A DNA stretch of 64,000 bases from Omnitrophica bacterium GWA2_41_15 (GTDB taxonomy: Bacteria; Omnitrophota; Gorgyraeia; Gygaellales; UBA12090): positions 42,810-106,809 of the forward strand of contig CAKKRH010000006.1 of NCBI GenBank assembly GCA_919902675.1, written 5' to 3'. Positions within the stretch are counted from its first letter, which is position 1. Each line of letters starts with the position of its first letter. Positions 40,778 to 60,671 of the stretch are shown piece after piece. The notes below the pieces were generated by a model, which worked only from the letters and a program-made list of their open reading frames with translations, did no database searches and was not told where the DNA came from. Made by a program: the position numbers and the translations under genes.

Positions 40778-42447
40778 TTGTTTCGTCTCAATGTCCATTT
40801 AGGAGTTTTTCGCGGCCCTGAATTTATTATGCTCTTATCATTATTCGCCATGTCAAAAAGTAAATTAGAAATTTTCTTAATCTTCTGTTCAGGATTGAGC
40901 ACATTAGATAATTTATCCATCAATAAATCATCTATTTCTTTTCTCGTGGCGCTGCCGTATTTTTCCAGGAAAGAAATTATCATTTTTTTATAATGCTCTT
41001 TGTCAAATGCCCTGTTTTTGATGTATATGGCCTTTTCACCCGCGATATCGGCAATCTTTGAGACTACAAAAAGATTAGGATACCTTCCTTCCACTAGTCT
41101 TTGTTTTTTTAATCTTTGATAACTCTGTTTGGCAATCTTATTCTTCTTTTGAATTTTATCAAGCAAAATAACCGTCTGAATATCCAAGTCCGTGTGCTTA
41201 ATAAGCAATTGGGTATAATTTTGGTCAATTACTTTTCCGGTAATTTTTACCGTAACCTCGTTTGGATTTTCTAGTATGTAAGTCGGTAAAGGAAAAAACC
41301 GCTCCCGCTGTTTTGTAAACATTTTTTTGATGCCGCCGCCAACAGTATCTATCATATTTAATGTTACCATGGCATTGGCGAGAAACTGATTGCGATAATA
41401 TCTTGGCGGGGCGTCTTTTTCTATCACGGACTCCACGGTGCCGGGAAGGAAACTGCCAGCATTGGAAAAGATAAGCTCTTCCGGTTTTTCAATAATGGAT
41501 ATTCGGGAGCAAAGTTCATAATCTTGATGAGCGATACAGTTATGCAGGGCCTCGCGAATAACATAGGGTTCATATTGTGTAATCTCTATGGGGAATAAGG
41601 TATTGTCAGGAAGATAACGATACTTTAAATTGCGTATTTTGGCTAAGGCCAAGTCGGTATTTAGAATAAACGGCGCTCCAAAATGTTCATAATCTTTGTC
41701 GGTGTTTTTCTCGTCTCTAAGAATCCAGCTTATTTTAGCGGTAAAAGGAGAAATAAAATGATCGGATTCAGATTTCCCAAGCAAAAGAATCGCGGCTCGG
41801 GTCAACCGCCCTTCAATTGCCAGCTTTACTTTATTAAGAAGAGTAATATCATCCCAAATACCCGCATCCGCGGATAGGTTAGGAAATTTAATCTTAAACT
41901 CTTGCCGGGCTTTAAGAATAGCGTTGGCATCCAAATCGGAAACAGAGACGCCATCGCATACCTGAGCCGACCAATCAGGCTTAGTTTGATTGCGTATCGC
42001 TTCATATTCCTGAGGGCTAAGCGCCGCCAGAGATTCCCCTTCCCTGCCGTAATAATGTCCTTCCCAAGACACCGGCATACCTTGCGGCGCGGATGGAACT
42101 TGAAACATAATGATTCGTTTCCCATCTTTTTCAAGCTCATATATTTCAATGAATGTTATGCGAGCCGTGGTTTTATCGGCAATTTCTTTCTTTAAACGAT
42201 CCAAGGCGCGCCTGCCGTATGCCCGATAACCGGAACCCAAGACTTTCTTAGTCTTATCGTCAACTCCAAAAACCAACCAGCCGCACTCCTTGTCGTTAAG
42301 ATTAGCTTCATTGCTTATCGCGGAAAAATACTTTCCCATCTTATCAAAAGGGAAGTCCTGTTTGGCATGTTTAAACTCAACCCATTCCGTTTCCGCGGGC
42401 AAGCTCAACAATTTCCGCAACTTTTCTAATATCTTCGTTTGATCCAT
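40774..42447 (-). CDS. AlbA_2 (Schlafen-like) DNA-binding domain protein with a C-terminal HATPase_c_4/wHTH-type region
   Basis: N-terminus is ETEWVEFKHAK...GKYFSAISNEANLNDKECGWLVFGVDD. The central region is REALHNCIAHQDY. This family is commonly annotated as a putative transcriptional regulator or RecG-like. Confidence 0.65.
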   Translation of the reverse strand: MDQTKILEKLRKLLSLPAETEWVEFKHAKQDFPFDKMGKYFSAISNEANLNDKECGWLVFGVDDKTKKVLGSGYRAYGRRALDRLKKEIADKTTARITFIEIYELEKDGKRIIMFQVPSAPQGMPVSWEGHYYGREGESLAALSPQEYEAIRNQTKPDWSAQVCDGVSVSDLDANAILKARQEFKIKFPNLSADAGIWDDITLLNKVKLAIEGRLTRAAILLLGKSESDHFISPFTAKISWILRDEKNTDKDYEHFGAPFILNTDLALAKIRNLKYRYLPDNTLFPIEITQYEPYVIREALHNCIAHQDYELCSRISIIEKPEELIFSNAGSFLPGTVESVIEKDAPPRYYRNQFLANAMVTLNMIDTVGGGIKKMFTKQRERFFPLPTYILENPNEVTVKITGKVIDQNYTQLLIKHTDLDIQTVILLDKIQKKNKIAKQSYQRLKKQRLVEGRYPNLFVVSKIADIAGEKAIYIKNRAFDKEHYKKMIISFLEKYGSATRKEIDDLLMDKLSNVLNPEQKIKKISNLLFDMANNDKSIINSGPRKTPKWTLRRNK

Positions 42448-43472
42448 TATTTTATCTTTACCTGCTTAAACAGTTCAAAGAGGCGGCTAAAAGGGACATA
42501 CCAGCGAGAGAGTTTGCCCAGCTCGCCTTTTAGCTTCATCTTGCCCTGCATTACTGCCACAAAGGGGTCGAGCTTGCCTAAGAATACCAACTGCCAGGAA
42601 TCCGCAGGCGCGGAAATTATAAAAGGCGCGTCTTCATCAAAGTCTAACTTAACAATCTTTCCCTTCTCAAAATTAAATTTATAGGCGCTGTTATGGCCGC
42701 CTGCCCCGAGCGTAGTCGAAGGGTCTAATTTTATGGCTAATTGCAGGGTCAAATCTAATTCCTGGCCCTTTTTAGCGATAAACTCATCCTTGTTCACCAA
42801 ATCCACAATCGCCTGGATATGCTCTTTGGAAAACATCACATACGCGCTGTCTTGGGCAAGATTTTCCTTAAGCGCCTTATCCAGCTCGTCCAGAACATCT
42901 TTCTTAAATAAACGGGCAGTGGCGGCCACCTTTACCGCCTCCTCTAAAGTCTCAATAAAATAAAGGCAGTCGCTGAATTTATCGGCTACCGAAACCACCC
43001 CATGATTCTTAGCCACTACCAGATTGCTGGCCTTTAAGGCCTCAACAATCAATTCCGGCCTGCTAATCGCCGGGGTATCCTGCTCCACTACCGGGATATT
43101 GCCCAGATAGAGCTTGCTCTCAAAGGTCAAGGTCTTAAGTTCCGGACAAACCGCGAAATAGGCATTGATCAGGGTGGGGTGGCAGTGGATGATATTTTTA
43201 TGGGGGGAATTCTCATAGACCATCCGGTGCAGGGGAAATTCGGTAGTCAGGCGCTTATTCTTCAGGTCTTCTTCGTTCTTTAAGTCAACTTTGATGATGT
43301 CGTCGTGGCTAAGACTGCCTAAACTTGAGCCGGTTGAGGTAATCAGAATAGTATTTTCATCTAAGCGCGCGCTTAAGTTGCCGGAACGGCCAACCACCAA
43401 GCGCAGTTCATAAAGTTTCTTCCCAATATTAACTACTTCATCCCGGAGGGCTTTTTCTTTTCCGAAGATCAT
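42447..43472 (-). CDS. Class II aldolase/adducin-domain protein fused to a C-terminal SCP2 domain
   Basis: N-terminal half: GRSGNLSARL...TTEFPLHRMVY...IIHCHP. C-terminal half: WQLVFLGKLDPFVAVMQGKMKLKGELGKL, which is SCP2-like. Confidence 0.7.
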   Translation of the reverse strand: MIFGKEKALRDEVVNIGKKLYELRLVVGRSGNLSARLDENTILITSTGSSLGSLSHDDIIKVDLKNEEDLKNKRLTTEFPLHRMVYENSPHKNIIHCHPTLINAYFAVCPELKTLTFESKLYLGNIPVVEQDTPAISRPELIVEALKASNLVVAKNHGVVSVADKFSDCLYFIETLEEAVKVAATARLFKKDVLDELDKALKENLAQDSAYVMFSKEHIQAIVDLVNKDEFIAKKGQELDLTLQLAIKLDPSTTLGAGGHNSAYKFNFEKGKIVKLDFDEDAPFIISAPADSWQLVFLGKLDPFVAVMQGKMKLKGELGKLSRWYVPFSRLFELFKQVKIK

Positions 43473-44410
43473 CTGGCAATCCCTAAATGAAAATGTTTGG
43501 TGATTAGGTTATTAGGGGTGATATCAAAGGCCGGATAAAACCCTTTTACCCCATAAGGGGCCAGGCGCAGGCCCTGGTATTCCAGCAACTCCTTCTCTGG
43601 CCGGATTTCTACCGTTATATCCTTACCGCTTTTGGCCTTGGACGGCGGCGGGCAAAGGACATAAAAGGGAACCTTGAAATGTTTAGCTACCAAGGCAATC
43701 TGGTAGGTGCCGATTTTATTGGCTACGTCTCCGTTTTGGGCCAATTGGTCCGCGCCCACAATCACCTTGGTAATCTTGCCGCTGGACATAATGCTGGCCA
43801 CCATACCGTCGGTCATTATGGTTACCGGAAATCCTGCCAGATGCAATTCCCAGGCAGTCAGCCGGCTGCCCTGCATATACGGCCGGGTCTCGGTAACATA
43901 AAACTCAATATGTTTGCCGGCCTTGCGGCAGAACTCGGCAATTAAGGGTAGCTCACCGCTGACATTGCAATGGGTAAGGATAACATCTTTGTTTTGAATA
44001 ATCCTACTTACCTCTTCGGCCCTCTGGATGCGCTTGGCTTTGAGCATCTCCAAGAAACCAAACATAGTTTTCTCCAAATCCTGACCTTGGGCCTGCCAGT
44101 CTAAGACCATATCGGTCAAGAATTTAAAGGGTAGGGTGGGACGGGCCGAGTTAAGCGCCGCGGCAGTTTTCTTCAAAACCGGAAGGATATTTTTCTTATT
44201 CTTATTTTGTTTTAATACTAACAAGAAAGTATAAAACACAAGAGATACCTGGCCAAAGGCCCGGGTTTTCATTTCCTTAATCGCCTTAACCGCCTGCGGA
44301 TAGGTCTTGGCTTTGACATAAGTCAACTTGTGCGGCAGCAAGGTTTCATCCAGGATATAAATGGTGTTTCCTCTTAATTCTACCGGCCAAAAAAGGGGAG
44401 AAAATTTCAT
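43469..44410 (-). CDS. Methylthioribose-1-phosphate / 5-deoxyribose-1-phosphate isomerase family (eIF-2B-like, MtnA/DrdI)
   Basis: Contains ETRPYMQGSRLTAWEL and GADQLAQNGDVANKIGTYQIALVAKHFKVPFYV. Confidence 0.75.
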   Translation of the reverse strand: MKFSPLFWPVELRGNTIYILDETLLPHKLTYVKAKTYPQAVKAIKEMKTRAFGQVSLVFYTFLLVLKQNKNKKNILPVLKKTAAALNSARPTLPFKFLTDMVLDWQAQGQDLEKTMFGFLEMLKAKRIQRAEEVSRIIQNKDVILTHCNVSGELPLIAEFCRKAGKHIEFYVTETRPYMQGSRLTAWELHLAGFPVTIMTDGMVASIMSSGKITKVIVGADQLAQNGDVANKIGTYQIALVAKHFKVPFYVLCPPPSKAKSGKDITVEIRPEKELLEYQGLRLAPYGVKGFYPAFDITPNNLITKHFHLGIAR

Positions 44411-45156
44411 TTTTCCTCTAATCTTTTTACCGTTTCCAAAGCAATCTCAATCAGCTTGGTCTCGGCCATATAGTAAAGTGGATTCATAAAGCCCATCTCG
44501 CCAGTGATAACATTATCGCTGACTGCCAGGATGGAGCCGGCCTTGATATTATAAGTCTGAGCAATAGTCAAAAGGGTCGAGGAAACCATATCCACTGCCA
44601 TTGCCCCTTCCTTGCGTTTGGCCTCAACAAGTTCTCGGGTTTCACGTAAAAGAGCATCAGTAGTCCAAACAGTGCCGCGATACACATTCGCCCCTAAATC
44701 CTTGGCCACTTTCTCCAGGGTATCACTAATCTTTTTATCCGCGACAGTTTTAAAGTTCGAATCCACATAATACGGCGTAACCCCGTCTCCCCGGATAATT
44801 TTATCCACCACCACTAAATCCCCAACCTTGATATTTTCATCCAGCGCGCCGCAGGTACCGATACGGATGATATTGGGTATCTGGGCATTACACATTACCT
44901 CGGTGGTAATTGAGGTATCGGTGGAAAATCTCCCCCCGTTTATCGCGGTAACTTTAATCCCCTGATAAGTTCCGGTATGCATCGTGTATTCCATAAAAGA
45001 GAAATTCCTAACCGGATTCTCTATCTTCTTCATCAACACATCTAGCCGATCCTTGGGCCCGGGGACAATGGCATATTTACCCACATCCTGCGGCCTTAAC
45101 TGCACCATCCCGGTTAAATCTTTTCCGGTCAAATGAACCTCTTTTTGCATCCGCAT
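44407..45156 (-). CDS. Nucleoside phosphorylase, PNP/UDP family 1
   Basis: Contains IIRIGTCGAL, and MVSSTLLTIA resembles the E.E/M motif. It is translationally coupled to the isomerase gene. Confidence 0.7.
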   Translation of the reverse strand: MRMQKEVHLTGKDLTGMVQLRPQDVGKYAIVPGPKDRLDVLMKKIENPVRNFSFMEYTMHTGTYQGIKVTAINGGRFSTDTSITTEVMCNAQIPNIIRIGTCGALDENIKVGDLVVVDKIIRGDGVTPYYVDSNFKTVADKKISDTLEKVAKDLGANVYRGTVWTTDALLRETRELVEAKRKEGAMAVDMVSSTLLTIAQTYNIKAGSILAVSDNVITGEMGFMNPLYYMAETKLIEIALETVKRLEEK

Positions 45157-45171: not shown

Positions 45172-46095
45172 TTAAACAATCACGTCTAAACTGATTATCT
45201 TCCCTATGTTCATTCCCAACATCAATTCTTTTTGTTTATTAGGCGTGTCTAATTCCCGAATCGCCTTTATCGAACCCCTGACATCCTTATTCGCCGGATA
45301 ATCTGAACCCCATAATAAATGCTCAGCCCCAAAGGTATCCAGAGCCATTTTCAATATATTCTTTGACTTCACCGCGCTGGTATCACAGTAGATATTTTTA
45401 AAAATCTCCGACGGCGCCTTGCCTAAGTCTTTGACGATATTCCTCATCCTGAGCATTGTATACACCGTATCAAAACGGTCTTTAAGAAAAGGCAAAACCC
45501 CGCCAAAGTGGGCAAAAATAAACTTTAAGGCGGGAAAATGGACAAAAACTCCGGACATCATCATCTTGGAAACACACATCGTCATATCAAAGACATATTC
45601 AACTACCGGGGTAAGCAGGGGGTCGTTTACCCTTTCAAAGCCGATAGGATTAATGGTCTGAGTGTGCACGAATATGGGGACATTTTCGCCTTGGGCTTCT
45701 TCGTATAAAGGATAAAACCGTTTGTCGTCAAGATAGATACCGCTATAACTGGCGGCCAAAGATATCCCCCTTAGTCCCAGCTCCATGCGGCAGCGCTTAA
45801 ACTCATAAAGCATTCTTTCTTTATCATGAATGGGCAGGACGCCCAAGCCGATGAATTTGTGGGGATATTTACGGATAACCCTGCTTAAGCCGTCGTTATA
45901 AAGCCTGGCTGCCTTTTCTTCATCGCTTAGTTTGATGTGGGCGTCAGTAGTAGGATAGTGCAGGATTGCCTTTTCAACTCCGCTTTCTTCCATACCCTTT
46001 AACTGGGCCTCTATATCCGTCCAGCTGGGATTATAAAAAGAGGCCACCTTGACAATCTCCTCCGGCAGATAATGGCTATGGGCGTCAATAATCAT
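45172..46095 (-). CDS. Amidohydrolase-2 (ACMSD-like metal-dependent hydrolase/decarboxylase)
   Basis: Begins MIIDAHSHYLP and ends with the ...WGSDYP motif. Confidence 0.7.
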   Translation of the reverse strand: MIIDAHSHYLPEEIVKVASFYNPSWTDIEAQLKGMEESGVEKAILHYPTTDAHIKLSDEEKAARLYNDGLSRVIRKYPHKFIGLGVLPIHDKERMLYEFKRCRMELGLRGISLAASYSGIYLDDKRFYPLYEEAQGENVPIFVHTQTINPIGFERVNDPLLTPVVEYVFDMTMCVSKMMMSGVFVHFPALKFIFAHFGGVLPFLKDRFDTVYTMLRMRNIVKDLGKAPSEIFKNIYCDTSAVKSKNILKMALDTFGAEHLLWGSDYPANKDVRGSIKAIRELDTPNKQKELMLGMNIGKIISLDVIV

Positions 46096-47392: not shown

Positions 47393-47812
47393 TTATAACC
47401 GGTTTTCCTTCTCCTCGATTATCCGCTTAATCATCTCCTGATGATAAGATTCTCTTATCTTGCTCAGGCCTTCCTGGCCCAGCTCTTTAATTATCGCCTT
47501 TTCTATGGCAATAAGCTTGACATCCAGAAAGATAAACTCCGGGTCAATCTTTTTACCCTTGTATTTCAGCTTCAGGCAGGCCTTTTCCTTCTCGGAGATA
47601 TATAACCTAAAATCATTAACTAATTTTTCTAAAGATTTTTTCTCCTGGGGCATATAAGAGCCTTTGAGCTCTTTTTCCATTTCCCTTAATACAAACCCAT
47701 CAATATCTATCTGGGTAAACTTGCGTTCATAACGATCAAAGGCCTCTTTGGTTATCTTATAGAGCCAAGTCAGATACCGGATTCTAAGATTCTTCTCGTC
47801 TTTTTTGTCCAT
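47393..47812 (-). CDS. Hypothetical charged/coiled protein
   Basis: 139 aa with no recognised domain. Confidence 0.4.
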   Translation of the reverse strand: MDKKDEKNLRIRYLTWLYKITKEAFDRYERKFTQIDIDGFVLREMEKELKGSYMPQEKKSLEKLVNDFRLYISEKEKACLKLKYKGKKIDPEFIFLDVKLIAIEKAIIKELGQEGLSKIRESYHQEMIKRIIEEKENRL

Positions 47813-47912: not shown

Positions 47913-48686
47913 CTATTTCCCGGGATGTTCCTGCTTAAACGGTATCACCGGAGCTGTCCAGGGGGTCTGCTGATTGATCACCGCGATCTCTAAAGGACAG
48001 ACATTAGCCGGCACCGTAAGGGCAAACTTAAGCGCGTTCTCAATGGCCTCGGTAGTCATCAGCCGCGAGATGTCAGCGGTTACCTCTTTAAGCTTTCCGG
48101 TTAAATCAGTATCGGTTACTCCCGGTAAGATCGAAGTTACCTTTATCCCATGGTCGCGCATCTCCCAAAACAACCCCTTGCAAAAAGCCTTAAGCCCTAC
48201 CTTTAGCGAGCTATAAACAATAAAACTTCTGGGCACCGGGTCGCAAAGGGTAGAGCCAGAAACCATATTGATAATCGCTCCGGACTTATTCTTAATCATA
48301 TCATTTATCACTAAGCGGATTAAGCGCACATACCCCAGATAATTAGTATGCACTAAGCTCTCAAAGTCCTCAAATGGCTGTTTCTCAAAAGGGTATTGGC
48401 TGGAGACCCCGGCGTTATTGATCAAGATATCAATCTTACCGAACCTCTCCTTGGCCTTATTGACCAGATTTTCCAAATCGCTTAACTTAGTTACATCGCA
48501 GGCTACCGGTAAGACTTCTACCTTATATTTTTTACGGATTTCCTCCGCGGTCTCCTTCAGCGGCCCTTCAGTGCGCGCGGCTATGGTCAAGTTAATCCCT
48601 AGACTTGCCGCGGTAGAAGCCAAGGCCTTACCAATCCCCCGGCTGGCCCCGGTAACAATCGCGGTCTTTCCTTTTAAGTCAGACAT
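47913..48686 (-). CDS. Short-chain dehydrogenase/reductase (ketoreductase-type)
   Basis: Contains TGASRGIG, NNAG and YSSLK. Confidence 0.85.
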   Translation of the reverse strand: MSDLKGKTAIVTGASRGIGKALASTAASLGINLTIAARTEGPLKETAEEIRKKYKVEVLPVACDVTKLSDLENLVNKAKERFGKIDILINNAGVSSQYPFEKQPFEDFESLVHTNYLGYVRLIRLVINDMIKNKSGAIINMVSGSTLCDPVPRSFIVYSSLKVGLKAFCKGLFWEMRDHGIKVTSILPGVTDTDLTGKLKEVTADISRLMTTEAIENALKFALTVPANVCPLEIAVINQQTPWTAPVIPFKQEHPGK

Positions 48687-48704
48687 CTTAAACCTCCTGA
48701 TATT

Positions 48705-49841
48705 TTAAGTAACTTTTAGAATCTTTCTTGACGCTATCGCCAAAATTAAAACAATTATCCCTAAACCCAAAAAAGTTAGGCTAAAGCTTCTTTGCATAAA
48801 AACCCCGGCCAGGCCCACTCCTAACCCCCCACTGGCAAAACGCACCGCACTGTTTAAACTAGCCAATTCCGGCCGCAGTTTATCCGGAAAATCTGTCAAC
48901 ACCGTGGAAACCGCGTTATGGTTCATAGTCCAACTGATTCCAAAAACTAAAAGCAAAAATGCCAGATAATAAAATGAAAAAGGTTTTATCAGCAGGAATG
49001 TTATCAGGGAAAGCCCGCATAGCCCTAAAGTAGCGGCAAAACCCCTGCCCATTTTATCCGTGACCCAGCCGCCAAAAGGCTGGCCGAATATCCCGCTAAA
49101 ACCCACCAAACTTAAAAGCAGGCTTACCTCTAACTGCTTAAAGTTTAAAGAAGAAAAATACACCCCTAACCAATTATAGATGCCGTGATAAACTAAACTT
49201 AAAACAAGGATATAGGCGAATATGCGCGATATCCGGGTATCCTTTAGCACATGCAGATAATTTACATCAAAATCATAGCTTGATTTTGACTTAAAATCAA
49301 ACAACAAGATAACCAAAATCAGGTTTATTGCCGCGAATACAGCCGGCAAGATAAAAAGCTGCCTCCAGGGCAAGATCCCGCTCAAGAATACCCCTAAAAA
49401 AGAAGCAATAAAAGTAGCGCTGAAAAACGCCCCCACCATCCGGCCGCGGGTTTCCTTGGGGGCAAGCTCACCGATTAAGATCAGGGCGATAGGAGTAGTA
49501 GCGCTGGCGGCAATCCCGGCCAAGGCCCGGCTAAGAAAAAGCTGCCCTATGGAATTGCTTAATCCCCCAATCAGGCTGGCCAAGGCAAAAATAAACAGGC
49601 TCACCGCCTTAATCGCCTTGACCGGATACCTTTTGACCAGCGGGGCATAGACCAGCGCGGCTATGCCGTACGGGATCATATAAAAAGGAATAATCCTGGC
49701 CGCCTCAAAGCTGTTTTTCCCTAAATCCTTGGCAATCGCCGGAATAACCGCGGTCATAGCCGCCGTATTCAATGAAACTACCGCCCCCTCCAGCCATAAA
49801 AGAGCAAAGAATATCTTGTTACTTTTTAGCTTCTCTCTCAA
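48705..49841 (-). CDS. MFS transporter (putative exporter of the cluster)
   Basis: 378 aa with about 12 hydrophobic segments. Confidence 0.7.
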   Translation of the reverse strand: MREKLKSNKIFFALLWLEGAVVSLNTAAMTAVIPAIAKDLGKNSFEAARIIPFYMIPYGIAALVYAPLVKRYPVKAIKAVSLFIFALASLIGGLSNSIGQLFLSRALAGIAASATTPIALILIGELAPKETRGRMVGAFFSATFIASFLGVFLSGILPWRQLFILPAVFAAINLILVILLFDFKSKSSYDFDVNYLHVLKDTRISRIFAYILVLSLVYHGIYNWLGVYFSSLNFKQLEVSLLLSLVGFSGIFGQPFGGWVTDKMGRGFAATLGLCGLSLITFLLIKPFSFYYLAFLLLVFGISWTMNHNAVSTVLTDFPDKLRPELASLNSAVRFASGGLGVGLAGVFMQRSFSLTFLGLGIIVLILAIASRKILKVT

Positions 49842-50301
49842 TTACTTCCTTGAATATCTTCAGATTATCTTTAGAATGCTTATTAATAAAACCTTCTACC
49901 TGTTGATCATTAAACTTGGCCTTTTCATCCATCTCAAAATGCTGAATCCAGGTCATTTCCACAGGCCAGCAGGCCGTGGTTTGGCTTCCATTAGCCAAAG
50001 CCACACCTTCGGGCTTTAAAGTATAGAGCCAAACAATCTTCATATATTTAAAGGGAAACTTCGGCTCTTCTCTCTCTGAATAAGTAAAATATTTTTCTTT
50101 AAAAAGCAATCGCCATGATTGCCACGACTTCCCTTCGTCATCGGTCAAACGAAAAGTGATTTTATTGCCTTCTTTTTTAACTATCTCGGCCTTTTTGTAT
50201 TCTCCCCCAAATAATTCCGTCCAGCGCGGGATGTCATTAGAAATATCAAAAATCCTCTCATACGGCGCGTTGATTATAATTGAGTTACAGGTGTGTCCCA
50301 T
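49819..50301 (-). CDS. SRPBCC / polyketide cyclase-aromatase-like protein
   Basis: 160 aa. SIIINAPYERIFDISNDIPRWTELF is typical of Polyketide_cyc2/SRPBCC N-termini. Confidence 0.65.
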   Translation of the reverse strand: MGHTCNSIIINAPYERIFDISNDIPRWTELFGGEYKKAEIVKKEGNKITFRLTDDEGKSWQSWRLLFKEKYFTYSEREEPKFPFKYMKIVWLYTLKPEGVALANGSQTTACWPVEMTWIQHFEMDEKAKFNDQQVEGFINKHSKDNLKIFKEVIEREAKK

Positions 50302-50309
50302 TGGTCCTC

Positions 50310-50633: not shown

Positions 50634-50643
50634 CCCTTAAAGA

Positions 50644-51441
50644 TTATTTTTCCAGTATCGCTGTTACCCTTGCCCAGGCCGCACCTGTACCTTTAATCTT
50701 AATCGGAAAACAGATTACTTTAAAGCCTGTATCGGGAATATTTTCTAGATGAGCCAGCCTTTCAATATGGATAAACTCGCGTTTCCTGCCGTAAAAATGC
50801 GACGGATATAGAGGCTTCTTCTCTTCCAGAAACTCCTTAAGCATAGATTTATACGGCTGGTCAATGCCCATTGTGTCCACACCGAAGATTTTGATGCCTC
50901 TATCTAAAAGATAATCTATGGCCGAGACATCTATCCCGGGATATTCCGAGAAATATTGGGGAGTGCCGTAAAACTTATCCGCTCCAGTATGTAAAAGCAC
51001 AATGTCCCGCGGCTTCAAGGTATATTGAATTTTCTTAAGGGCTTCTTCTAAATCTTTCGCCGTGATAACCTCATTTGGCTTTTTGTGGGTAAGCGTAAGC
51101 TTAACACCGTCACAGTAACACCATTCTAAGGGAATTTCTTCGGCGGTCTTGGACGGCCTGCCCTCTGATTTTGAGCCGTAATGAAAAGAGTAATCTAAAT
51201 GCGTGCCGATATGCACCGGGGAATGCACCACCTCTAAAGATAAAAACTCCTCATCCGGGAGATCTTCCTTCTTGAGGATGCGCTTACCCAAAAGGTATTG
51301 AAGCTTACCTTTGAGGGTTTTTCCCATAATCACCCGGTTGAATTTCTTAACCCCGTCTTTATGAGAAACCCGCTCAATCTCCACATGGTGGACCTCAAAG
51401 GCCTTCTCGTCTATCGGCAGGCTTAGGTCAATTATTTGCAT
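50644..51441 (-). CDS. Cyclase family protein (PF04199, kynurenine formamidase-like)
   Basis: Contains HIGTHLDYSFH and the layout DIVLLHTG...GIKIFGVDTMGID. Confidence 0.7.
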   Translation of the reverse strand: MQIIDLSLPIDEKAFEVHHVEIERVSHKDGVKKFNRVIMGKTLKGKLQYLLGKRILKKEDLPDEEFLSLEVVHSPVHIGTHLDYSFHYGSKSEGRPSKTAEEIPLEWCYCDGVKLTLTHKKPNEVITAKDLEEALKKIQYTLKPRDIVLLHTGADKFYGTPQYFSEYPGIDVSAIDYLLDRGIKIFGVDTMGIDQPYKSMLKEFLEEKKPLYPSHFYGRKREFIHIERLAHLENIPDTGFKVICFPIKIKGTGAAWARVTAILEK

Positions 51442-51528
51442 GATAAATTCTGATTGCTGCTTTCAGCTATCGGCTTTCAGCTTTCTGCTGAACGCTGACG
51501 GCTGAATGCTGAAAGCTTTTTTAGCTTG

Positions 51529-51777
51529 TTATTTTAATACTGTCTGGGATAACTTTGACTGAATCGTCTTTTCAATATCATTCACCGAGCAGAACTTAGT
51601 GATTTCCTTAGCGGTTAATTTTACCCCAAAGGCCTTTTCCAGGGCAATCACCAACTCTACCAACTCCGTAGAATCCGCTCCGATGCCATCGCAGAGCTTC
51701 TCGTTATCCTTTAGCTCCTGCGGCTTTAATTTCAAAAGATTTATTATCGTTTCCCTTATTTTATCCTTTACTTCCAT
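51529..51777 (-). CDS. Acyl carrier protein
   Basis: 82 aa. The phosphopantetheine Ser context is GADSTELVELV. Confidence 0.85.
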   Translation of the reverse strand: MEVKDKIRETIINLLKLKPQELKDNEKLCDGIGADSTELVELVIALEKAFGVKLTAKEITKFCSVNDIEKTIQSKLSQTVLK

Positions 51778-51854
51778 CTTCCCCCCCCTCCCCTAACTCC
51801 CTAAACTCCTAAACCCTTAAACTCCCCAAACCTCCAACCTCTAACTTCCAACTT

Positions 51855-53315
51855 CTATATATGGTGTTCCCCCTTAGTCGCCCCGGCCTCCCATTTTCCC
51901 ACCCCGGCCATTACATCCTGAAAGCAGAGCTTGGCCAGGATATCAAAATTGCTTTCCATAATCCGGTTGATCCTCCCGGGCTTGGAAAAAAACTCCCGCA
52001 TACACCAGGAGCCCAGTCTGCCTAAATCTTCAAGGGAGAGATGATCCGTGGGCATCACCGGATGCAGAAAATCCCAGGTCCTAAAATCTATCTTCGCGGG
52101 ATTAATCCAATTCTTCTTCATACCGATGCGCCACATCGGAGAATTGGGAGCCGGAGTAACATAACCGACCCAGAGGATATCCGGGTCTACCTCGTCGGTA
52201 AACTCATACCTTTGTTTAATGATCTTTTCATCGTCATAATCAAAACCCATCATAATATCCGCGACCACGGCAATGTCATTGCGCCGTAAGATATCAATGG
52301 TCTTTTTAATCTGGTCAATGGTAATGCCTTTGGCAATCTTCTTTAATTCCTCCGGAGTGGTAACCTCAATGCCGAAGACCCCGGTAAAAAGCCCGGCTTT
52401 TTTCATTAAAGGAAGGATTGATTCGCAATTCACCCAATCCACCGCCCTGCCTAAAGAAACCCATTTGATAGGAATATTTCTTTCTAATTTCAGCTCACAA
52501 AATTCCTTGACCCTTTCCGGATTGACATTAAAATTATCATCCTGCAGGACAACTACTTTAACCCCGTATTGCTTATGCAACATCTCCAATTCTTCAATAA
52601 CCCTTTTGGGGCTTTTGGCCCGCCATTTAAGAAAATCACTCGGAGAACGCGGGTCATACTGATCCCACTCGTAACAAAAGGTGCAGGCCGATGGACACCC
52701 GCGGGATGAGACCATATCCACAAACGGCTTCCAATGGGTATGCCCCACATATTTATCCATCGGGAATAAATCATAAGCCGGTAAAGGCAGGGCATCCAAA
52801 TCCTGCTGTAAGGCTTTATACGGGCCCATCACAATTTCGCCGTTTATCCGGGAAGTAACCCCGCCGATATTTTTTAAATCTTTCTTTTTATCTATCGCCT
52901 CTAATAAATCGCAAAAACATTCTTCCTCACCCATTACCACAAAATCCACGGCCGGATTATCTTTTAAGGTCTCAGTCGGCATTGCCGAATACCAGAGGCC
53001 GCCGAAGATTATTTTCACCTTGGGCAAGGCCTGCCGTATTTTCTTGGCTGCCTCGTTAAAATACCAGACTACCGCGTATCCGCCGTAAGAATGAAGCTGT
53101 TCGCCTAAAACCACTATATCGGGATTCTTCTCTTTCACCTGGGCGGTCATTTCATCCATAGATAATTCAAAAGCCTTACAATCCAGGACCGCGACATCCT
53201 TATATCCTTTTTCCCTCACATAGGCCGCCCAGTGGGTATATAACTGATTCGGTGCCACATGCTTTCCATGGGTAGCCCAGGCCCCGACTTTAGGCATCAC
53301 AAATAGAATCTTCAT
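51855..53315 (-). CDS. B12-binding-domain radical SAM enzyme (class B)
   Basis: N-terminal B12-like Rossmann region, then the CxxxCxxC motif in SSRGCPSACTFCYEW. Confidence 0.85.
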   Translation of the reverse strand: MKILFVMPKVGAWATHGKHVAPNQLYTHWAAYVREKGYKDVAVLDCKAFELSMDEMTAQVKEKNPDIVVLGEQLHSYGGYAVVWYFNEAAKKIRQALPKVKIIFGGLWYSAMPTETLKDNPAVDFVVMGEEECFCDLLEAIDKKKDLKNIGGVTSRINGEIVMGPYKALQQDLDALPLPAYDLFPMDKYVGHTHWKPFVDMVSSRGCPSACTFCYEWDQYDPRSPSDFLKWRAKSPKRVIEELEMLHKQYGVKVVVLQDDNFNVNPERVKEFCELKLERNIPIKWVSLGRAVDWVNCESILPLMKKAGLFTGVFGIEVTTPEELKKIAKGITIDQIKKTIDILRRNDIAVVADIMMGFDYDDEKIIKQRYEFTDEVDPDILWVGYVTPAPNSPMWRIGMKKNWINPAKIDFRTWDFLHPVMPTDHLSLEDLGRLGSWCMREFFSKPGRINRIMESNFDILAKLCFQDVMAGVGKWEAGATKGEHHI

Positions 53316-53380
53316 AAATTCCTCCTTTTTAATTTAAAACTTAAAAGTTAAAAATCAAAACTACAATCTAAAACTTAAAA

Positions 53381-53755
53381 CTATTTATTCTTTAAAGTTA
53401 ATATGCTTTTTGCCAATATTTTTGAAATCTCAGTAACTTCTTTTATAAGATTGTCTGCTTCTTGAAAGTTAGCTTTACCTGTATCGCGCAATAAATCTAA
53501 CCAATACTTAGTTTCATTGCTGGACTTCAAGGAATAGCTAAAGAAATTTATAAAATCTTTTCGTGTATTACAGGATTTGGCTTCTACTATATTAGCACCT
53601 ATGCTGGTAGCGCTGCGTAGAAGCTGATTAGAAATTATTTGGACGGAATTATCTTTAGAAAGCTTATCAATAAAATTTATAATCTGAATAGAATAGTTAT
53701 ATGTTCTTTTCTTTATGTCATAATTATCTTTGGATTTTGAATTGCAATTTTGCAT
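53381..53755 (-). CDS. Four-helix-bundle protein of the 23S rRNA intervening-sequence type
   Basis: 124 aa. SNQLLRSATSIGANIVEA...ETKYWLDLL is characteristic. The gene is flanked by inverted ctaaaac-rich arms (53326-53382 and 53756-53780). Confidence 0.8.
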   Translation of the reverse strand: MQNCNSKSKDNYDIKKRTYNYSIQIINFIDKLSKDNSVQIISNQLLRSATSIGANIVEAKSCNTRKDFINFFSYSLKSSNETKYWLDLLRDTGKANFQEADNLIKEVTEISKILAKSILTLKNK

Positions 53756-53770
53756 TTTGAATTTTAGGTT

Positions 53771-55000
53771 TTAGGTTTTTTCTATCACCAGCGCCGAATT
53801 AATCCCGCCCCTGCCCCGGGAAATCACCAATGCCTTATTAATTTTATACTCTTTGGCTTCTTTTTTGATGTAGTTTAAGCCGTTATTTGCCGGCTCATCT
53901 AAGTTTATGGTCGGAGGAATTAAATTGTGCTCCATACCAAGGATGGTGGTGATCATATCCACGGCCCCGGAGGCGCCCAACAAATTACCGAACATTGACT
54001 TAGGACAGCTTGCCGGAATAGTTTTTGCCTTATCGCCAAAAACCTGCTTTATGGCGCTCACCTCGCCTGAATCCCAATCGTCACAGGCCAAGCCGTCTAA
54101 ACTGATATAATCTATTTTTTCCGGTAAAACTTGGGCATCGTCCAAGGCCATTTGGATTGCCCGGGCTAATTCTTTACCGTCAGTTGCCGGATTAATCCTG
54201 TCTCTTGCGTCACAGGTTGTGCCGTAGCCGGAAATTACTGCCTGAATATTGGCATTGCGGGCTTTGGCGCGTTCAATATTTTCCAATGTTACAATTCCAG
54301 CGCCTTCGCCAATCACAAAACCATCGCGCTTTTTGTCAAACGGCCGATAGGCGCTTTGCGGGTTATCATTGTTTTTTGATAAACAACCATAGGTATTACA
54401 GCATAAAAGCGCGTAAGGGGTAACCGGGGCTTCCATTCCTCCGGCCAGAATCAAATTTAACTTATCTTTACCCAGGGTCTTACCGGCATATCCTAAAGCC
54501 ATCAAAGAGCTGGCCCGGTCGCTGACCACGGTTTTACTAAAACCCTTAATCCCGTAATAAATGGAAACCTGCCCCTGGGGCGCGGCAGGAAACCAGGCGC
54601 TGGCCATATATGGCGAGACTCCTTCACGGCCCTCCCGGTATAGGTCGCGCAGCTCAGTTTCGGCATAGAGCCAGCCGCCAATGGCATTGCCTAAAAAAAT
54701 CCCTACCAAATTGGGATCCTCTTTCTGGATGTCAAGCCCCGCGTCCTGAAGCGCCATTTCTGAGGCAATCAATGCCATATGCGAAAAGGCATCCATTTTT
54801 TTAAGCAGGCGCTCTGAAACATGGGTATAGGCATCCAAATCATCAATCTGCCCGGCAATATGCGATGGATAAGCTTGAGCGTCAAAACGGGTAATTTTTT
54901 TGACAAAACTTCTTCCTGCCTTGATATTTGCCCAAAACTGGCGCTTGCCGATACCGCTGGGGGCAACTATTCCTATTCCTGTAACCGCTATCTTACGCAT
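53771..55000 (-). CDS. Ketosynthase-fold partner subunit lacking the catalytic triad (KS-beta/CLF-like)
   Basis: Thiolase-fold KS homolog. In an ungapped alignment with the adjacent KS, Cys becomes Arg (VVSDRASSL), His becomes Asp (CDARDRINP) and His becomes Asp (ISLDGLAC). Confidence 0.8.
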   Translation of the reverse strand: MRKIAVTGIGIVAPSGIGKRQFWANIKAGRSFVKKITRFDAQAYPSHIAGQIDDLDAYTHVSERLLKKMDAFSHMALIASEMALQDAGLDIQKEDPNLVGIFLGNAIGGWLYAETELRDLYREGREGVSPYMASAWFPAAPQGQVSIYYGIKGFSKTVVSDRASSLMALGYAGKTLGKDKLNLILAGGMEAPVTPYALLCCNTYGCLSKNNDNPQSAYRPFDKKRDGFVIGEGAGIVTLENIERAKARNANIQAVISGYGTTCDARDRINPATDGKELARAIQMALDDAQVLPEKIDYISLDGLACDDWDSGEVSAIKQVFGDKAKTIPASCPKSMFGNLLGASGAVDMITTILGMEHNLIPPTINLDEPANNGLNYIKKEAKEYKINKALVISRGRGGINSALVIEKT

Positions 55001-55105
55001 CTTTCCTCACTTCGTTCGTAAAGCGCGAAACTACGCAGAACCATACGCAGAACTACGCTCAACGTGTTGTGCGTGGTTTTGCGTTACGTTCCGCGTGGTT
55101 CAGCG
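55001..55105. repeat. REP-like palindromic element, copy 3
   Basis: Sequence ...gcgcgaaactacgcagaaccatacgcagaactacgc...gtgcgtggttttgcgttacgttccgcgtggttcagcgc. It shares a ctttcctcacttcgttcg extension with copy 4. Confidence 0.8.
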
Positions 55106-56365
55106 CTACTTATACCTTCTCATCACCAATGACGAATGTATCCCAGAGAAACCGCTTGAGGTCTTGATAATCGCGTTCACCTTCTTCTCTCTGGCCTGAT
55201 TAGGAATGTAATCCAAATCACATAAGGGGTCTTTTTCTTCCTGATTTATCGTAGGAGGCAAAATGTTTTTCTGAAATATCATCGCGCAGACACTCAGCTC
55301 AACCGCGTTGGCCGCCGCCAGTGGATGGCCAATCATTGACTTAAGCGAACTCATCGGCAGTTTATAGGCGTAATCCCCGAAAACCATCTTGTAGGCGCTG
55401 GTTTCAAAGATATCGTTCATCCGGGTGGATGAGCCGTGGGCGCTGATATAATCTATCTCCCGCGGTTTTATCGCGGCATCCTTAAGGGCCAAATTTATAC
55501 AACTTGCCATTGCCGTGCCGTCCGCCGGAAGGTCAGTCATATGAAAGGCGTTACAACTTGTGCCAAAGCCGATAACCTCACAGTAAATATGGGCATTTCG
55601 TTTAAGGGCGTGATTTAATTCCTCTAAAATTAAAATCCCCGCGCCTTCTGAAAGGACAAACCCATCGCGTTTTTTGTCAAATGGCCGCGATGCTTTCTCC
55701 GGAAAATCATTACGCGCCGAGAGAACATTAACCACATCAAAAGCGCCAAAGGTAATCGGCGTAAGTGGTGCTTCGGCAGCTCCGGCAATCATAATATCCG
55801 CCTCGCCGTCCTGAATTGTCTCTAAGCAAAAACCTAAAGAATCCGTCCCCGCGGTGCATCCGGTTGAGATGGTATTACAAAGCCCATTTAATCCGTATCT
55901 GGCGGAAAGCTCAATAGAGGGGGTATTAAACATCGCGGCATCATACAGGTCAGGCCGGACGAGTTTTGGATTTATGGGATTCTTTCCGTTATCCGTCACT
56001 AAAGAAAACTCTTCCTCCATATACTTTGTTCCGCAAATGGCATTGGCAAGCGACACCCCGATTCTTTCAGGATCTTCCCGGCTAAAATCCATTCCGCTAT
56101 CCTTAATTGCCATATCCCCTGCCACCACCCCAAACTGCACATACCTATCCATACGCACCGCTTCATCATGGGTAAGCCCAAGCTTGAACGGGTCAAAATC
56201 CCTTACCTCAGCGGCAATCCGGGTATTAAACACCGAAACATCAAAACTATCCACCAGCCTCACCGCGGATTTTCCCTTAATCATCGCCTCATAGACATTG
56301 TCCTTGCCAATGCCGTTAGGCGAAATCACCCCGATACCTGTTATCACTACGCGTCTTTTTCGCAT
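55106..56365 (-). CDS. Beta-ketoacyl synthase (KS-alpha/FabF-like) with an intact Cys-His-His triad
   Basis: Active-site sequences ISTGCTAGTDS (Cys), CNAFHMTDL (His) and ISAHGSSTRMND (His), plus KSMIGHPLAAA. Confidence 0.9.
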   Translation of the reverse strand: MRKRRVVITGIGVISPNGIGKDNVYEAMIKGKSAVRLVDSFDVSVFNTRIAAEVRDFDPFKLGLTHDEAVRMDRYVQFGVVAGDMAIKDSGMDFSREDPERIGVSLANAICGTKYMEEEFSLVTDNGKNPINPKLVRPDLYDAAMFNTPSIELSARYGLNGLCNTISTGCTAGTDSLGFCLETIQDGEADIMIAGAAEAPLTPITFGAFDVVNVLSARNDFPEKASRPFDKKRDGFVLSEGAGILILEELNHALKRNAHIYCEVIGFGTSCNAFHMTDLPADGTAMASCINLALKDAAIKPREIDYISAHGSSTRMNDIFETSAYKMVFGDYAYKLPMSSLKSMIGHPLAAANAVELSVCAMIFQKNILPPTINQEEKDPLCDLDYIPNQAREKKVNAIIKTSSGFSGIHSSLVMRRYK

Positions 56366-56380
56366 AATTTATTTTTTCTC

Positions 56381-57019
56381 CTAACAACCGCAGGGAGGTG
56401 GGATTTTATTTTCAGAAAGCGCCTCCTTATTTTCCGCTTCACCCGCGCGCGTCAACTTAAATACGATATGGCCTCCGTCCGGGCAGGTTACCGTATCTAT
56501 AGAATTTGGATCCTTCATAAAGAAAAATTTAGCTCCGAAATTAAGGGCGAATACCGCCGGAAACATCGTATGAAATGCCGCCCCGCAAAAATTAGGAATA
56601 GTCTCTAAGCCTTTGGTTTCCCATTTCTGGCCTAAGACATACTTATAGGCGCAATGGCCTTCAGACTTAACCACTTCGACCAGCATCTTTTTGGGTTTGG
56701 GGCCTTTCCAATTTTGGTCTTTAGGGACAAACTCAACCTTGCCCTCCTTATCCAAAACCTCAGCCTTAAATTCCAGCTTGCCTCCGTCAGGGCAGGTGGT
56801 GAGCAACGAACGCTGGTTTTCCATAAAAGGAAACCGTGCCCCAAAACTTAAGGCGTAGATTACAGGAAAAAGCACCTGGGCTAACCCTAAACAAAAATGC
56901 TCCGGGGGGTGAGTAAAATCTTCTAAGATTAATACATCCCCCAGTTTATAGTTGTGATAACAATGCCCTCCAACCTTATTAACCGTAAGTTTTAATTTTG
57001 GAAACGGCGTCTCGACCAT
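56381..57019 (-). CDS. Tandem fusion of two TIGR04076-like domains
   Basis: The two halves share GGHCYHNYKLGD...FCLGLAQVLFPVIYALSFGARFPF...TTCPDGG and EGHCAYKYVLGQ...FCGAAFHTMFPAVFALNFGAKFFF...VTCPDGG. Confidence 0.7.
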   Translation of the reverse strand: MVETPFPKLKLTVNKVGGHCYHNYKLGDVLILEDFTHPPEHFCLGLAQVLFPVIYALSFGARFPFMENQRSLLTTCPDGGKLEFKAEVLDKEGKVEFVPKDQNWKGPKPKKMLVEVVKSEGHCAYKYVLGQKWETKGLETIPNFCGAAFHTMFPAVFALNFGAKFFFMKDPNSIDTVTCPDGGHIVFKLTRAGEAENKEALSENKIPPPCGC

Positions 57020-57028
57020 AAGCTTCTC

Positions 57029-58033: not shown

Positions 58034-58035
58034 AA

Positions 58036-58251
58036 TCAGCTAAGAATGTGCACCTGGGACGGGACATGGTTAAGGATTAATTCTTTTAAATCCAGCTTCT
58101 TGCTGGCGTTATCAATGTCAATTCCCACTAATTCTCCCAGGCTGTCATAATCAAGGTTAATTCCCGGAGATATTTCACGAGTTTCGGAACTCTGTTTTGA
58201 TGACAGATCAATATAGAGAGAATCAGTCTGGGCGTAATAATTCAGCTTCAT
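58036..58251 (-). CDS. DUF2283 domain protein (putative antitoxin)
   Basis: 71 aa with YYAQTDSLYIDL...GELVGIDIDNAS. Confidence 0.7.
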   Translation of the reverse strand: MKLNYYAQTDSLYIDLSSKQSSETREISPGINLDYDSLGELVGIDIDNASKKLDLKELILNHVPSQVHILS

Positions 58252-58490
58252 GGCTTAAACCTCCTGTCTAAAAACGCGTTATGAATAGTAATTTTATCAT
58301 CCAGAGTTACCACTCTAACTATCTTACCTTCCAGCTCTTTAGCCTTTCCCCAAAAACGGAAACGATTATCTTCCTGCCGTTCAATCTTTAAAGGATTTTC
58401 AATAACCCTTACGCAAATATCTTTAGTAAGATAATTCCGCTTCCTTAAAACCTCATTCTCAAAATACAGGGTAAATTTATACCGAATCAT
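58248..58490 (-). CDS. DUF4258-like small protein (putative toxin partner)
   Basis: 80 aa with FRFWGKAKELEGKIVRVVTLDDKITIHNAFLDRRF. It overlaps both neighbouring genes by 4 nt. Confidence 0.5.
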   Translation of the reverse strand: MIRYKFTLYFENEVLRKRNYLTKDICVRVIENPLKIERQEDNRFRFWGKAKELEGKIVRVVTLDDKITIHNAFLDRRFKP

Positions 58491-58750
58491 CTGCCAACAG
58501 GATAACCGTATTTTCTATAATCAAGCTTCACGTCTTCCAGGAGCCGGATCATCAAGCTGTAAAAGGGCTTAGGCACCTCGCTAAAAAGGGCGGCTACCAC
58601 ATCCGCTTCTTCTACTTGCGCCACCCGGCGCTCCTTGGCGTTTTCCTGGGCCTTAAGGGTTACCGCCTCCTCGGCGATACGGCGATGAAACACCGGCATC
58701 TTGGAAATCATCAGTTTAAATTTTTCCTGTGTTTTAATATCCCAATCCAT
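58487..58750 (-). CDS. PCP_red-like (protochlorophyllide reductase C-terminal-like) small domain protein
   Basis: 87 aa. WDIKTQEKFKLMISKMPVFHRRIAEEAVTLKAQENAKERRVAQVEEADV fits the W..ea...l..iP.F.R pattern. Confidence 0.5.
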   Translation of the reverse strand: MDWDIKTQEKFKLMISKMPVFHRRIAEEAVTLKAQENAKERRVAQVEEADVVAALFSEVPKPFYSLMIRLLEDVKLDYRKYGYPVGR

Positions 58751-58869
58751 CTTCCCTCGCTTCGCTCGGGCGCTGAACTATGCGGAACTTTACGCAGAAC
58801 CACGCCTGCCGGCAGGCAGGCAATACAAGTTGTGCGTAGTTCCGCGTACTATTCCGCGCGGTTCCGCGA
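58751..58869. repeat. REP-like palindromic element, copy 4 (with a GC-rich ctgccggcaggcagg loop insert)
   Basis: Sequence cgctgaactatgcggaactttacgcagaaccacgc...gtgcgtagttccgcgtactattccgcgcggttccgcg. It overlaps the last codons of the ligase ORF. Confidence 0.8.
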
Positions 58870-60520: not shown

Positions 60521-60671
60521 GATTTTTTAAATCGGACTTTTTCTATATATTAGTAAAATTTTACTATTCAAGTTTCTCTTAATTATAAATCAGAAAAAAA
60601 GGCCTGTCAAATTATTTTTAGTATAAATCGCGGACTAAAAATAAAACAACAGGCGCCTAAGGCGTTGGCTA

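Follow-up and report, generated by a model that had tools for sequence, protein, structure and literature searches.

Using a combination of profile searches, structure prediction and gene-order comparison, our work here places a doubled TIGR04076 protein of Omnitrophica bacterium GWA2_41_15 at a fixed position within a polyketide operon and suggests how it could take part in polyketide tailoring. Its gene lies in a stretch of 64,000 nucleotides (contig CAKKRH010000006.1, positions 42,810 to 106,809), which we call the window and number from its first letter. The original prediction, made from this stretch alone, had proposed that a B12-binding radical S-adenosylmethionine (SAM) enzyme and the doubled protein modify a chain bound to an acyl carrier protein (ACP) in some generic way. 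Judged from the families of its genes, the system is instead very probably a type II aromatic polyketide synthase (PKS) operon. The doubled protein is very likely a functional part of this cluster, and we posit that a type II aromatic PKS pathway conserved across Omnitrophota would require it as an accessory subunit encoded in the operon. More tentatively, at a little under an even chance, its sequence leads us to read it as a fused, pseudo-dimeric metal or iron-sulphur (Fe-S) accessory subunit for oxygen-independent polyketide tailoring.

The 212-residue protein matches NCBIfam TIGR04076 in two stretches with 87.8 bits (cut-off 33, E = 5e-25), and its halves are 39% identical to each other (BLASTP, E = 2e-17), far beyond chance, so the duplication already noticed in the original prediction is real. 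The N-terminal module covers approximately residues 5-95 and the C-terminal one approximately 108-193, each with the order beta-beta-alpha-beta-beta, and an AlphaFold 2 (AF2) model (predicted local distance difference test score 87.7, predicted template modelling score 0.82) shows two packed modules and a disordered C-terminal tail. All the motifs quoted earlier (GGHC/EGHC, FC...FGA.F.F and TTCPDGG/VTCPDGG) are present. Of the Cys/His set that had been claimed for each half, the cysteines stand, three to a module: C20, C43, C76, C123, C145 and C179 are invariant across ~150 loci, with one change of C43 to Ala in 153 loci. The histidine of GGHC/EGHC does not, since H19 and H122 vary (Glu, His, Asp, Tyr or Val in the N-terminal module, mostly Lys in the C-terminal one). 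H22, H37 (in DFTHPP), D78 and D181 are likewise invariant across ~150 loci, bar one gap at D181, and H150 is kept in 142 of 148; also conserved in the subfamily are the linker between the modules (GP.PKKM) and the DFTHPP loop of the N-terminal module, which is missing from 55 aligned single modules. A low-confidence C-terminal tail ending in PPPCGC (approximately residues 194-212; 56381-56440, minus strand) occurs in the window genome and in the 93%-identical homologue P0001, and is not seen in other homologues of the doubled protein.

No Pfam family matched the doubled protein or 55 members of its family, no relative was found among PDB sequences by phmmer or with a 55-sequence profile, and a Foldseek search of the PDB with the AF2 model returned nothing meaningful (best E = 0.57). 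A metal- or cluster-binding role fits both the six invariant cysteines and the occurrence of such modules in one chain with DUF362 and 2x[4Fe-4S] ferredoxin domains, and with moderate confidence we regard binding of a metal or Fe-S cluster as a property predicted by the sequence.

Our assignment of the surrounding genes to a type II aromatic PKS draws on the ketosynthase (KS) pair and on the enzymes that follow it. Where a single KS gene had been described, there are two, forming a KSalpha/KSbeta pair. KSalpha has its best PDB matches in the actinorhodin KS (1TQY_A, 389 bits) and in 6SMO_B (375 bits), presumably AntD, the KS of the Photorhabdus anthraquinone PKS, ahead of the best FabF (355 bits), and its Cys-His-His triad is conserved in 128-135 loci. 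KSbeta is catalytically dead: across loci its three catalytic positions carry Arg (104) or Lys (6), Asp (106) and Asn (105), and the Cys position is never Gln, the residue that canonical chain-length factors (CLFs) carry there. Its closest PDB relative is FabF (314 bits), above the act CLF (254 bits). The attachment serine of the ACP is kept in 67 of 67 loci. The SRPBCC protein best matches the TcmN ARO/CYC structure (74 bits, E = 1e-19), followed by the deposited polyketide cyclases 3TVR and 3TL1, which we take to be the WhiE and ZhuI chains. A PF04199 protein, of what is presumably a metal-dependent family including the second-ring cyclases DpsY, MtmY and OxyN as well as kynurenine formamidase, and an Amidohydro_2 enzyme resembling aromatic-acid decarboxylases complete the picture. 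The KSalpha triad and its PDB ranking, the dead KSbeta, the TcmN-like cyclase and the decarboxylase-like enzyme are what carry the assignment. The cluster encodes no oxygenase, no thioesterase or other obvious release enzyme, and no dehydratase or enoyl reductase.

The doubled gene and this cluster travel together. A word-indexed search with the doubled protein found 760 homologues; the 120 matches listed are 70-93% identical to the window copy and nearly all 192-213 residues long, and the named sources among them are Omnitrophota, with one exception labelled Deltaproteobacteria. In a scan of one genome per GTDB species, relatives occurred in 278 genomes, the best 80 of which are labelled Omnitrophota, unclassified bacterium or Planctomycetales/Planctomycetia; going by labels, we take the last as mislabelled Omnitrophota. 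We scored the presence of cluster genes by tblastn with every window protein, counting as denominators the loci whose contig is long enough to test (Table 1). For the doubled subfamily the association suspected at the outset is borne out, since KS, ACP and B12-radical SAM genes are found in essentially every long-enough locus, and in the reverse direction the doubled gene lies between the ApbA-like reductase gene and KSalpha in 3 of 3 loci reached via homologues of the radical SAM enzyme. A metagenome scan added more distant doubled homologues (52-60% identity); of the 15 loci that could be tested, 14 have this cluster too.

Within the cluster, the doubled gene stands between the ApbA-like reductase gene and KSalpha in every PKS-linked locus and in all three operon variants, with gaps of 1-15 nucleotides. 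Both genes of interest had been placed between ACP and KS; this is right for the radical SAM gene of the window, whereas the doubled gene is upstream of KSalpha. The radical SAM gene takes one of three positions by lineage: between KSbeta and ACP (the window and most genomes), after the short-chain dehydrogenase/reductase (SDR) gene, or directly upstream of p87, the last giving a contiguous run of radical SAM, p87, ApbA and doubled TIGR04076 genes. Median identities across species are 85% for the SDR, 82% for KSalpha, 79% for the radical SAM enzyme, 78% for KSbeta and 74% for the doubled protein, set against 42-68% for flanking genes (few of them comparable, in 1-7 loci each). A core held at 74-85% identity reflects a constraint that is unusual for a secondary-metabolite cluster. 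The cluster is not mentioned in the Omnitrophota genome literature that we searched.

Outside this subfamily the link dissolves. Clustered at 50%, the wider family gave 146 hits, and the earlier description of TIGR04076 proteins as usually single-domain captures the many members of 86-100 residues and misses the common two-, three- and four-module forms; the Joint Genome Institute (JGI) label is 'uncharacterized repeat protein (TIGR04076 family)', and in the searchable literature the family turned up in two papers, only as annotation, in annotation tables. We take it to be widespread in microbes known as anaerobes. Across 55 diverse single modules the three cysteines, in the same columns, and one Gly are invariant and little else is; the His and Asp residues of the doubled protein are not kept. 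None of the eight archaeal single-module contexts that we inspected contains a KS gene. Four of them (L087, L158, L160, L161) have a radical SAM gene within 4 kb, never as a conserved operon partner; other neighbours include a NiFe hydrogenase operon, DUF5615 and polyferredoxin, which in L158 lies directly upstream of the single-module homologue. A family-wide association with radical SAM or KS genes, as first envisaged, was therefore rejected, and the PKS link is a property of the doubled Omnitrophota subfamily rather than of TIGR04076 generally. The sole domain fusion we saw that hints at redox chemistry for the family is P0168 (654 residues), in which three TIGR04076 modules are joined to DUF362 and a C-terminal 2x[4Fe-4S] ferredoxin domain. 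In P0127 (449 residues, from the representative library) an ApbA-like reductase reads through into a first TIGR04076 module and is truncated at the contig end; were the fusion natural, it would support functional coupling, the alternative being a stop codon that was lost or an error of sequencing.

The 486-residue radical SAM protein was correctly recognised as B12-binding: PF02310 (43.5 bits, cut-off 32.1) and PF04055 (81.2 bits, cut-off 29.5) both match, it contains SSRGCPSACTFCYEW with the motif CPSACTFC, and by these domain matches it is a class B (cobalamin-dependent) radical SAM enzyme. Its CX3CX2C cysteines (C207, C211, C214) are conserved in 89 of 89 loci, and its homologues are 74-86% identical (one 100%) and nearly all 485-487 residues long. 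The best-scoring NCBIfam model is BchE (TIGR02026, 217.7 bits), yet an identity as BchE was rejected, the score lying far below the cut-off of 481.35; HpnJ follows with 146 bits (cut-off 578), and methylase models reach 108-124 bits or lower. Four PDB sequence relatives were found in all, the best being the non-methylating diol dehydratase AprD4 (54 bits), with TokK and CysS at 31-34 bits. With the methylase models ranking below BchE and HpnJ, the C-methylation suggested earlier is not favoured over oxidative or cyclising chemistry. The operon also carries a PNP_UDP_1 phosphorylase, an MtnA-like isomerase and a class II aldolase, a trio that we take to resemble the dihydroxyacetone phosphate (DHAP) shunt disposing of 5'-deoxyadenosine and 5'-methylthioadenosine, the by-products of radical SAM enzymes, and such salvage genes suggest heavy radical SAM turnover. 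The same trio occupies the same operon position in L162 (16181-18873), and isomerase and aldolase genes follow the cluster in L163 (11243-13624) and L164 (11214-13581), with an aldehyde dehydrogenase gene after them; PNP_UDP_1 is upstream of the cluster in L164 and was not seen in L163. Separately, in L098 a B12-binding radical SAM gene (6737-8182, minus strand) lies ~1.8 kb upstream of a doubled gene (9953-10594, plus strand) in opposite orientation; its product is only 23% identical to the window enzyme, and its proximity may be coincidence.

We hypothesize that KSalpha, the dead KSbeta and the ACP, given their family assignments, would build a poly-beta-keto chain, that the SDR, the TcmN-like aromatase/cyclase and the PF04199 cyclase would fold and aromatise it, that the Amidohydro_2 enzyme would take off a carboxylate, and that major facilitator superfamily (MFS) and MMPL transporters could export the product. 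Most of the type II aromatic polyketide pathways known so far are those of aerobic actinomycetes, and such pathways depend on oxygenases. With no oxygenase in the cluster, and with the lineages of the TIGR04076 members seen here being, as we assume, anaerobes, tailoring would be left to the four non-canonical core genes, namely those of the B12-radical SAM enzyme, the ApbA-like reductase, the DUF2621-like p87 and the doubled TIGR04076 protein. The doubled protein would hold a metal centre or Fe-S cluster through its Cys3 sites and could serve a reductive or radical step, either as electron-transfer or cluster partner of the radical SAM enzyme or together with the adjacent reductase. Hints of such a redox role come from P0168, the polyferredoxin of L158, the contiguous four-gene variant, P0127 and the genes for salvage of radical SAM by-products. 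Directly shown are the duplication of the module, the family to which it belongs, the invariant cysteines, and the makeup and conservation of the cluster; metal binding, a redox function, and the substrate and product we infer. Of the earlier idea of a metal- or cluster-binding helper, the binding fits the sequence, and a dedicated helper of the radical SAM enzyme is only one of the options.

Several observations weigh against the redox proposal. The single-module relatives in the eight archaeal contexts lack a conserved radical SAM or KS partner, and two loci (L096, L098) carry a doubled homologue outside any PKS cluster. The doubled gene stays beside ApbA and KSalpha throughout, even where the radical SAM gene has another place in the operon, which suggests that it is more tightly coupled to these two than to the radical SAM enzyme. 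P0127 is a single cluster that ends at a contig edge and may be a sequencing artefact. ApbA-type reductases transfer hydride without a flavin, so the neighbouring reductase could not feed single electrons to an Fe-S protein. Donation of electrons by the doubled protein specifically to the radical SAM enzyme is, at best, doubtful. The fixed order of ApbA, doubled gene and KSalpha argues that the protein is coupled to the reductase or the ketosynthase no less closely than to the radical SAM enzyme, and leaves weight with two other accounts of it.

In the first of these, which we hold to be a minority possibility but take seriously, the doubled protein would have no redox function and serve as a structural or adaptor subunit, its cysteines perhaps forming structural Zn(Cys3X) sites; docked on KSalpha/KSbeta or on the ApbA-like reductase, it would aid priming, the gating of the chain or the passing on of the intermediate carried by the ACP. 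Such a subunit would explain the constant place of its gene, 1-15 nucleotides from ApbA and KSalpha in three operon variants; the conserved linker and the DFTHPP loop, the latter missing from single modules, suggest a partner-binding surface; and the atypical KSbeta, with Arg or Lys where canonical CLFs have Gln, could need a priming helper. Yet the three cysteines are invariant family-wide, also where no PKS is near, the joining of modules to DUF362 and ferredoxin domains speaks for redox chemistry, and to our knowledge no type II PKS requires a subunit of this kind.

A second, unlikely account makes the doubled protein the tailoring enzyme itself. It could hold a site-differentiated [4Fe-4S] cluster by three cysteines, leaving one iron open, and act as a dehydratase on an alcohol formed by the ApbA-like reductase, or it could be a Cys-His-Asp catalyst of acyl transfer or release. 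Three-Cys ligation is a hallmark of clusters with a free iron site, C20, H22, H37 and D78 are invariant in the N-terminal module, the gene directly follows the reductase gene (the two being fused in P0127), and the missing thioesterase or other obvious release enzyme would leave such an activity to be supplied. Against this, an 86-residue module is small for substrate binding, the His and Asp residues vary within the wider family, and Foldseek, profile and Pfam searches gave no similarity of fold or family to any enzyme.

Less probable still is an ACP-centred, fatty-acid-like system in which the radical SAM enzyme C-methylates or couples an acyl chain, as in ladderane-type synthesis, with the TIGR04076 protein as a cluster-binding helper. 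The radical SAM gene does lie between KSbeta and ACP in the main variant, its product weakly matches the ladderane/lipid-type B12-radical SAM model TIGR04072 (84.1 bits, below the cut-off of 360), and KSbeta is closest to FabF. But KSalpha is nearer to aromatic PKS ketosynthases than to FabF, the TcmN-type aromatase/cyclase, the PF04199 cyclase and the aromatic-acid decarboxylase are core members, dehydratase and enoyl reductase are missing, and the radical SAM enzyme scores higher with the BchE and HpnJ models than with those of methylases; a fatty acid synthase (FAS) or ladderane reading was judged unlikely on the closer kinship of KSalpha, the cyclase and the decarboxylase. Metagenome surveys have reported antiSMASH 'ladderane' clusters in Omnitrophota (PMC9902471), which would suit such a system if they were the same as the window cluster, a sameness that is only possible; conversely, those calls may be this very cluster, misannotated.

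That the co-location is inherited gene order only, with the doubled protein serving some general need of the cell, for instance redox or metal homeostasis, outside the polyketide pathway, is very improbable: single-module relatives in unrelated contexts and the two doubled homologues outside PKS clusters would suit it, but the gene stays put through three operon rearrangements down to 52% identity, its tight spacing is consistent with translational coupling, KSalpha accompanies it in 71 of 71 loci and the rest of the core in 38 of 38, and its median identity of 74% is like that of the core enzymes and unlike that of the flanking genes.

Returning to the window, every gene from 42447 to 60426 is on the minus strand, with short gaps. 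The order runs from the acyl-CoA ligase through p87, a two-gene insert, the ApbA-like reductase and the doubled TIGR04076 gene to KSalpha, KSbeta, a four-helix-bundle insert, the radical SAM enzyme and ACP; then come the PF04199 cyclase, cupin, SRPBCC cyclase, MFS transporter, SDR and p139, followed by a permease fragment with an alpha/beta hydrolase, the Amidohydro_2 enzyme, PNP_UDP_1, the MtnA-like isomerase and the class II aldolase (Table 1).

Table 1. Features of the operon and its surroundings in the window, in the direction of transcription; the last column gives the species loci in which a gene is present
Feature	Position	Strand	Remarks	Loci
Sigma-70-type promoter match	60582..60610	-	TTGACA-17-TATAAT, 12/12 hexamer positions; consensus match only	
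AMP-forming acyl-CoA ligase, 525 aa	58849..60426	-	Pfam AMP-binding and AMP-binding_C	
p87, 87-aa helical protein, DUF2621-like	58487..58750	-	First gene of the conserved core	66/67
Two-gene insert, 80 aa and 71 aa (DUF2283)	58036..58490	-	Between p87 and ApbA; lineage-specific	
ApbA/PanE-family NAD(P)H reductase, 334 aa	57029..58033	-	Pfam ApbA and ApbA_C; TIGR00745 171 bits	76/76
Doubled TIGR04076 protein, 212 aa	56381..57019	-	NCBIfam TIGR04076	
KSalpha, type II PKS ketosynthase	55106..56365	-	Cys170, His310, His347 intact	71/71
KSbeta, CLF-like, catalytically dead	53771..55000	-	Aligned with KSalpha: Cys to Arg, first His to Asp, second His to Asn	61/62
Four-helix-bundle gene (23S rRNA intervening-sequence family)	53381..53755	-	PF05635, TIGR02436; between KSbeta and radical SAM gene	
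Class B (B12-binding) radical SAM enzyme, 486 aa	51855..53315	-	PF02310 and PF04055	38/38
ACP, 82 aa	51529..51777	-	PF00550; phosphopantetheine Ser36 in motif DST	38/38
PF04199 'putative cyclase'	50644..51441	-	Motif HIGTHLDYSFH; PF04199 E = 1.5e-30	38/38
Small cupin, 107 aa	50310..50633	-	Cupin_2; variable member	8/38
SRPBCC polyketide aromatase/cyclase, TcmN/WhiE/ZhuI type	49819..50301	-	Pfam Polyketide_cyc	38/38
MFS transporter	48705..49841	-	NCBIfam MFS families	29/38
Classical SDR, putative polyketide ketoreductase	47913..48686	-	Most conserved cluster gene	37/38
p139, conserved 139-aa protein	47393..47812	-		30/38
Amidohydro_2 enzyme	45172..46095	-	Closest: non-oxidative aromatic-acid decarboxylases ACMSD, LigW, gamma-resorcylate decarboxylase	34/38
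PNP_UDP_1 phosphorylase, MtnA-like isomerase, class II aldolase	42447..45156	-	Three genes after the cluster	

The acyl-CoA ligase, which scores slightly below the cut-off of the NCBIfam long-chain fatty-acid--CoA ligase model (468 against 476 bits), is a variable accessory, upstream in some relatives and missing in most. Among ten p87 sequences (nine orthologues and the window copy) two pass the DUF2621 cut-off and six show a sub-threshold PCP_red match. The two-gene insert occurs among our loci only in the closest relatives (L005, L122, L128) and falls outside the conserved cluster; for the four-helix-bundle gene no tblastn match was found in any of ~150 loci examined. The best PDB relatives of the ApbA-like reductase are ketopantoate reductases, p139 matches no Pfam or NCBIfam model, and the MFS transporter is probably an exporter. 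In L162, on a 1.6-Mb contig, genes for a MarR regulator and an MMPL-family transporter (2735-5574) directly precede the operon, a hint that the product is exported or membrane-associated.

Scans for terminators and promoters gave no enrichment over shuffled sequence, bar one perfect promoter match; this sigma-70 match, the sole 12/12 in 19 kb, lies ~155 nucleotides upstream of the acyl-CoA ligase gene and is a candidate start of the transcription unit in the window genome, judged by consensus. Rfam matched no RNA element in 43000-61000. An intergenic repeat, GGTTCTGCGTANRGTTCYGCRTAGTT, with units of ~11 nucleotides (GTTCTGCGTAN), occurs in five copies in the window, where none is expected: 10688-10713 (-), 10734-10759 (+), 47835-47860 (-), 55029-55054 (-) and 58776-58801 (-). 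Three of them occupy gaps between genes of the PKS operon: one precedes p87, another lies between the two KS genes and the third between SDR and p139. The repeat, for which Rfam has no match, may be a regulatory site or an element of the REP type. The gene next downstream of the aldolase gene (40774-42447, minus strand) encodes a 557-residue protein in which Schlafen/AlbA_2 and HATPase_c_4 domains are combined, an architecture like that of defence or regulator proteins; it has no relation to the cluster.

By giving the uncharacterised TIGR04076 family its first firm pathway context, one that is fixed and testable, the operon draws attention to a type II cluster without oxygenases, equipped with radical SAM/B12 chemistry and by-product salvage, in an uncultured, ultra-small and partly predatory phylum. 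Its 74-85% identity, the absence of oxygenases and the radical SAM/B12 chemistry suggest that the product matters to the physiology of these bacteria and that aromatic tailoring proceeds without oxygen. In a far-reaching version that we regard as improbable, TIGR04076 modules would form a new class of small Cys3 Fe-S or metal proteins of unsolved fold, the fused pair would be essential to an oxygen-free tailoring unit that replaces oxygenases, and the pathway would yield an aromatic compound, conserved throughout the phylum, that serves the physiology of the cell. If so, this unit, with the BchE-like radical SAM enzyme, the ApbA-type reductase and the DUF2621-like protein, would install a water-derived oxygen, a methyl group or a ring closure, and the compound might serve as a quinone-like cofactor of polyketide origin or as a membrane pigment, not as an antibiotic made occasionally.

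Compared with their nearest known relatives, the two proteins at the centre of this study share the family framework and depart from it in context. The doubled protein resembles other TIGR04076 members in scoring well above the cut-off, in matching the module twice and in its three family-invariant cysteines per module. What sets its subfamily apart is a length of ~195-210 residues, two diverged modules, DFTHPP, the conserved linker and a fixed PKS context, in contrast to typical archaeal members of 86-90 residues that have no PKS context. Similarly, the radical SAM enzyme has the domain order of BchE and HpnJ, with B12 binding at the N-terminus and a CX3CX2C-bearing radical SAM core after it, and aligns with the BchE model over nearly its full length (residues 3-430 on model positions 2-415 of 497), but its scores fall far short of the equivalog cut-offs and it belongs to a PKS rather than to tetrapyrrole or hopanoid synthesis. 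With the C-methyltransferases TokK, CysS, KedN5 and GenK it has the two-domain architecture in common, whereas its PDB matches to such enzymes are weak and the methylase models score lower.

In the literature searched, only a catalogue of KS-CLF pairs (PMC10132072) names the phylum, merely listing Omnitrophica among those that bear them; it also describes a 'type II KS + type II FAS' pairing class, which the FabF-like KSbeta of the Omnitrophota cluster matches. Like the act, tcm, whiE and ant type II PKSs, the cluster sets a KSalpha with an intact triad beside a dead KS paralogue and a discrete ACP, and adds a monodomain SRPBCC aromatase/cyclase, a PF04199 cyclase, a small cupin, an SDR ketoreductase and an efflux transporter. 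Unlike them, it has a KSbeta with Arg or Lys that is nearer to FabF than to the act CLF, it lacks oxygenases, and its core includes a BchE-like B12-radical SAM enzyme, an ApbA-like reductase, a DUF2621-like protein and the doubled TIGR04076 protein, the whole being kept at 74-85% identity across an entire uncultured phylum.

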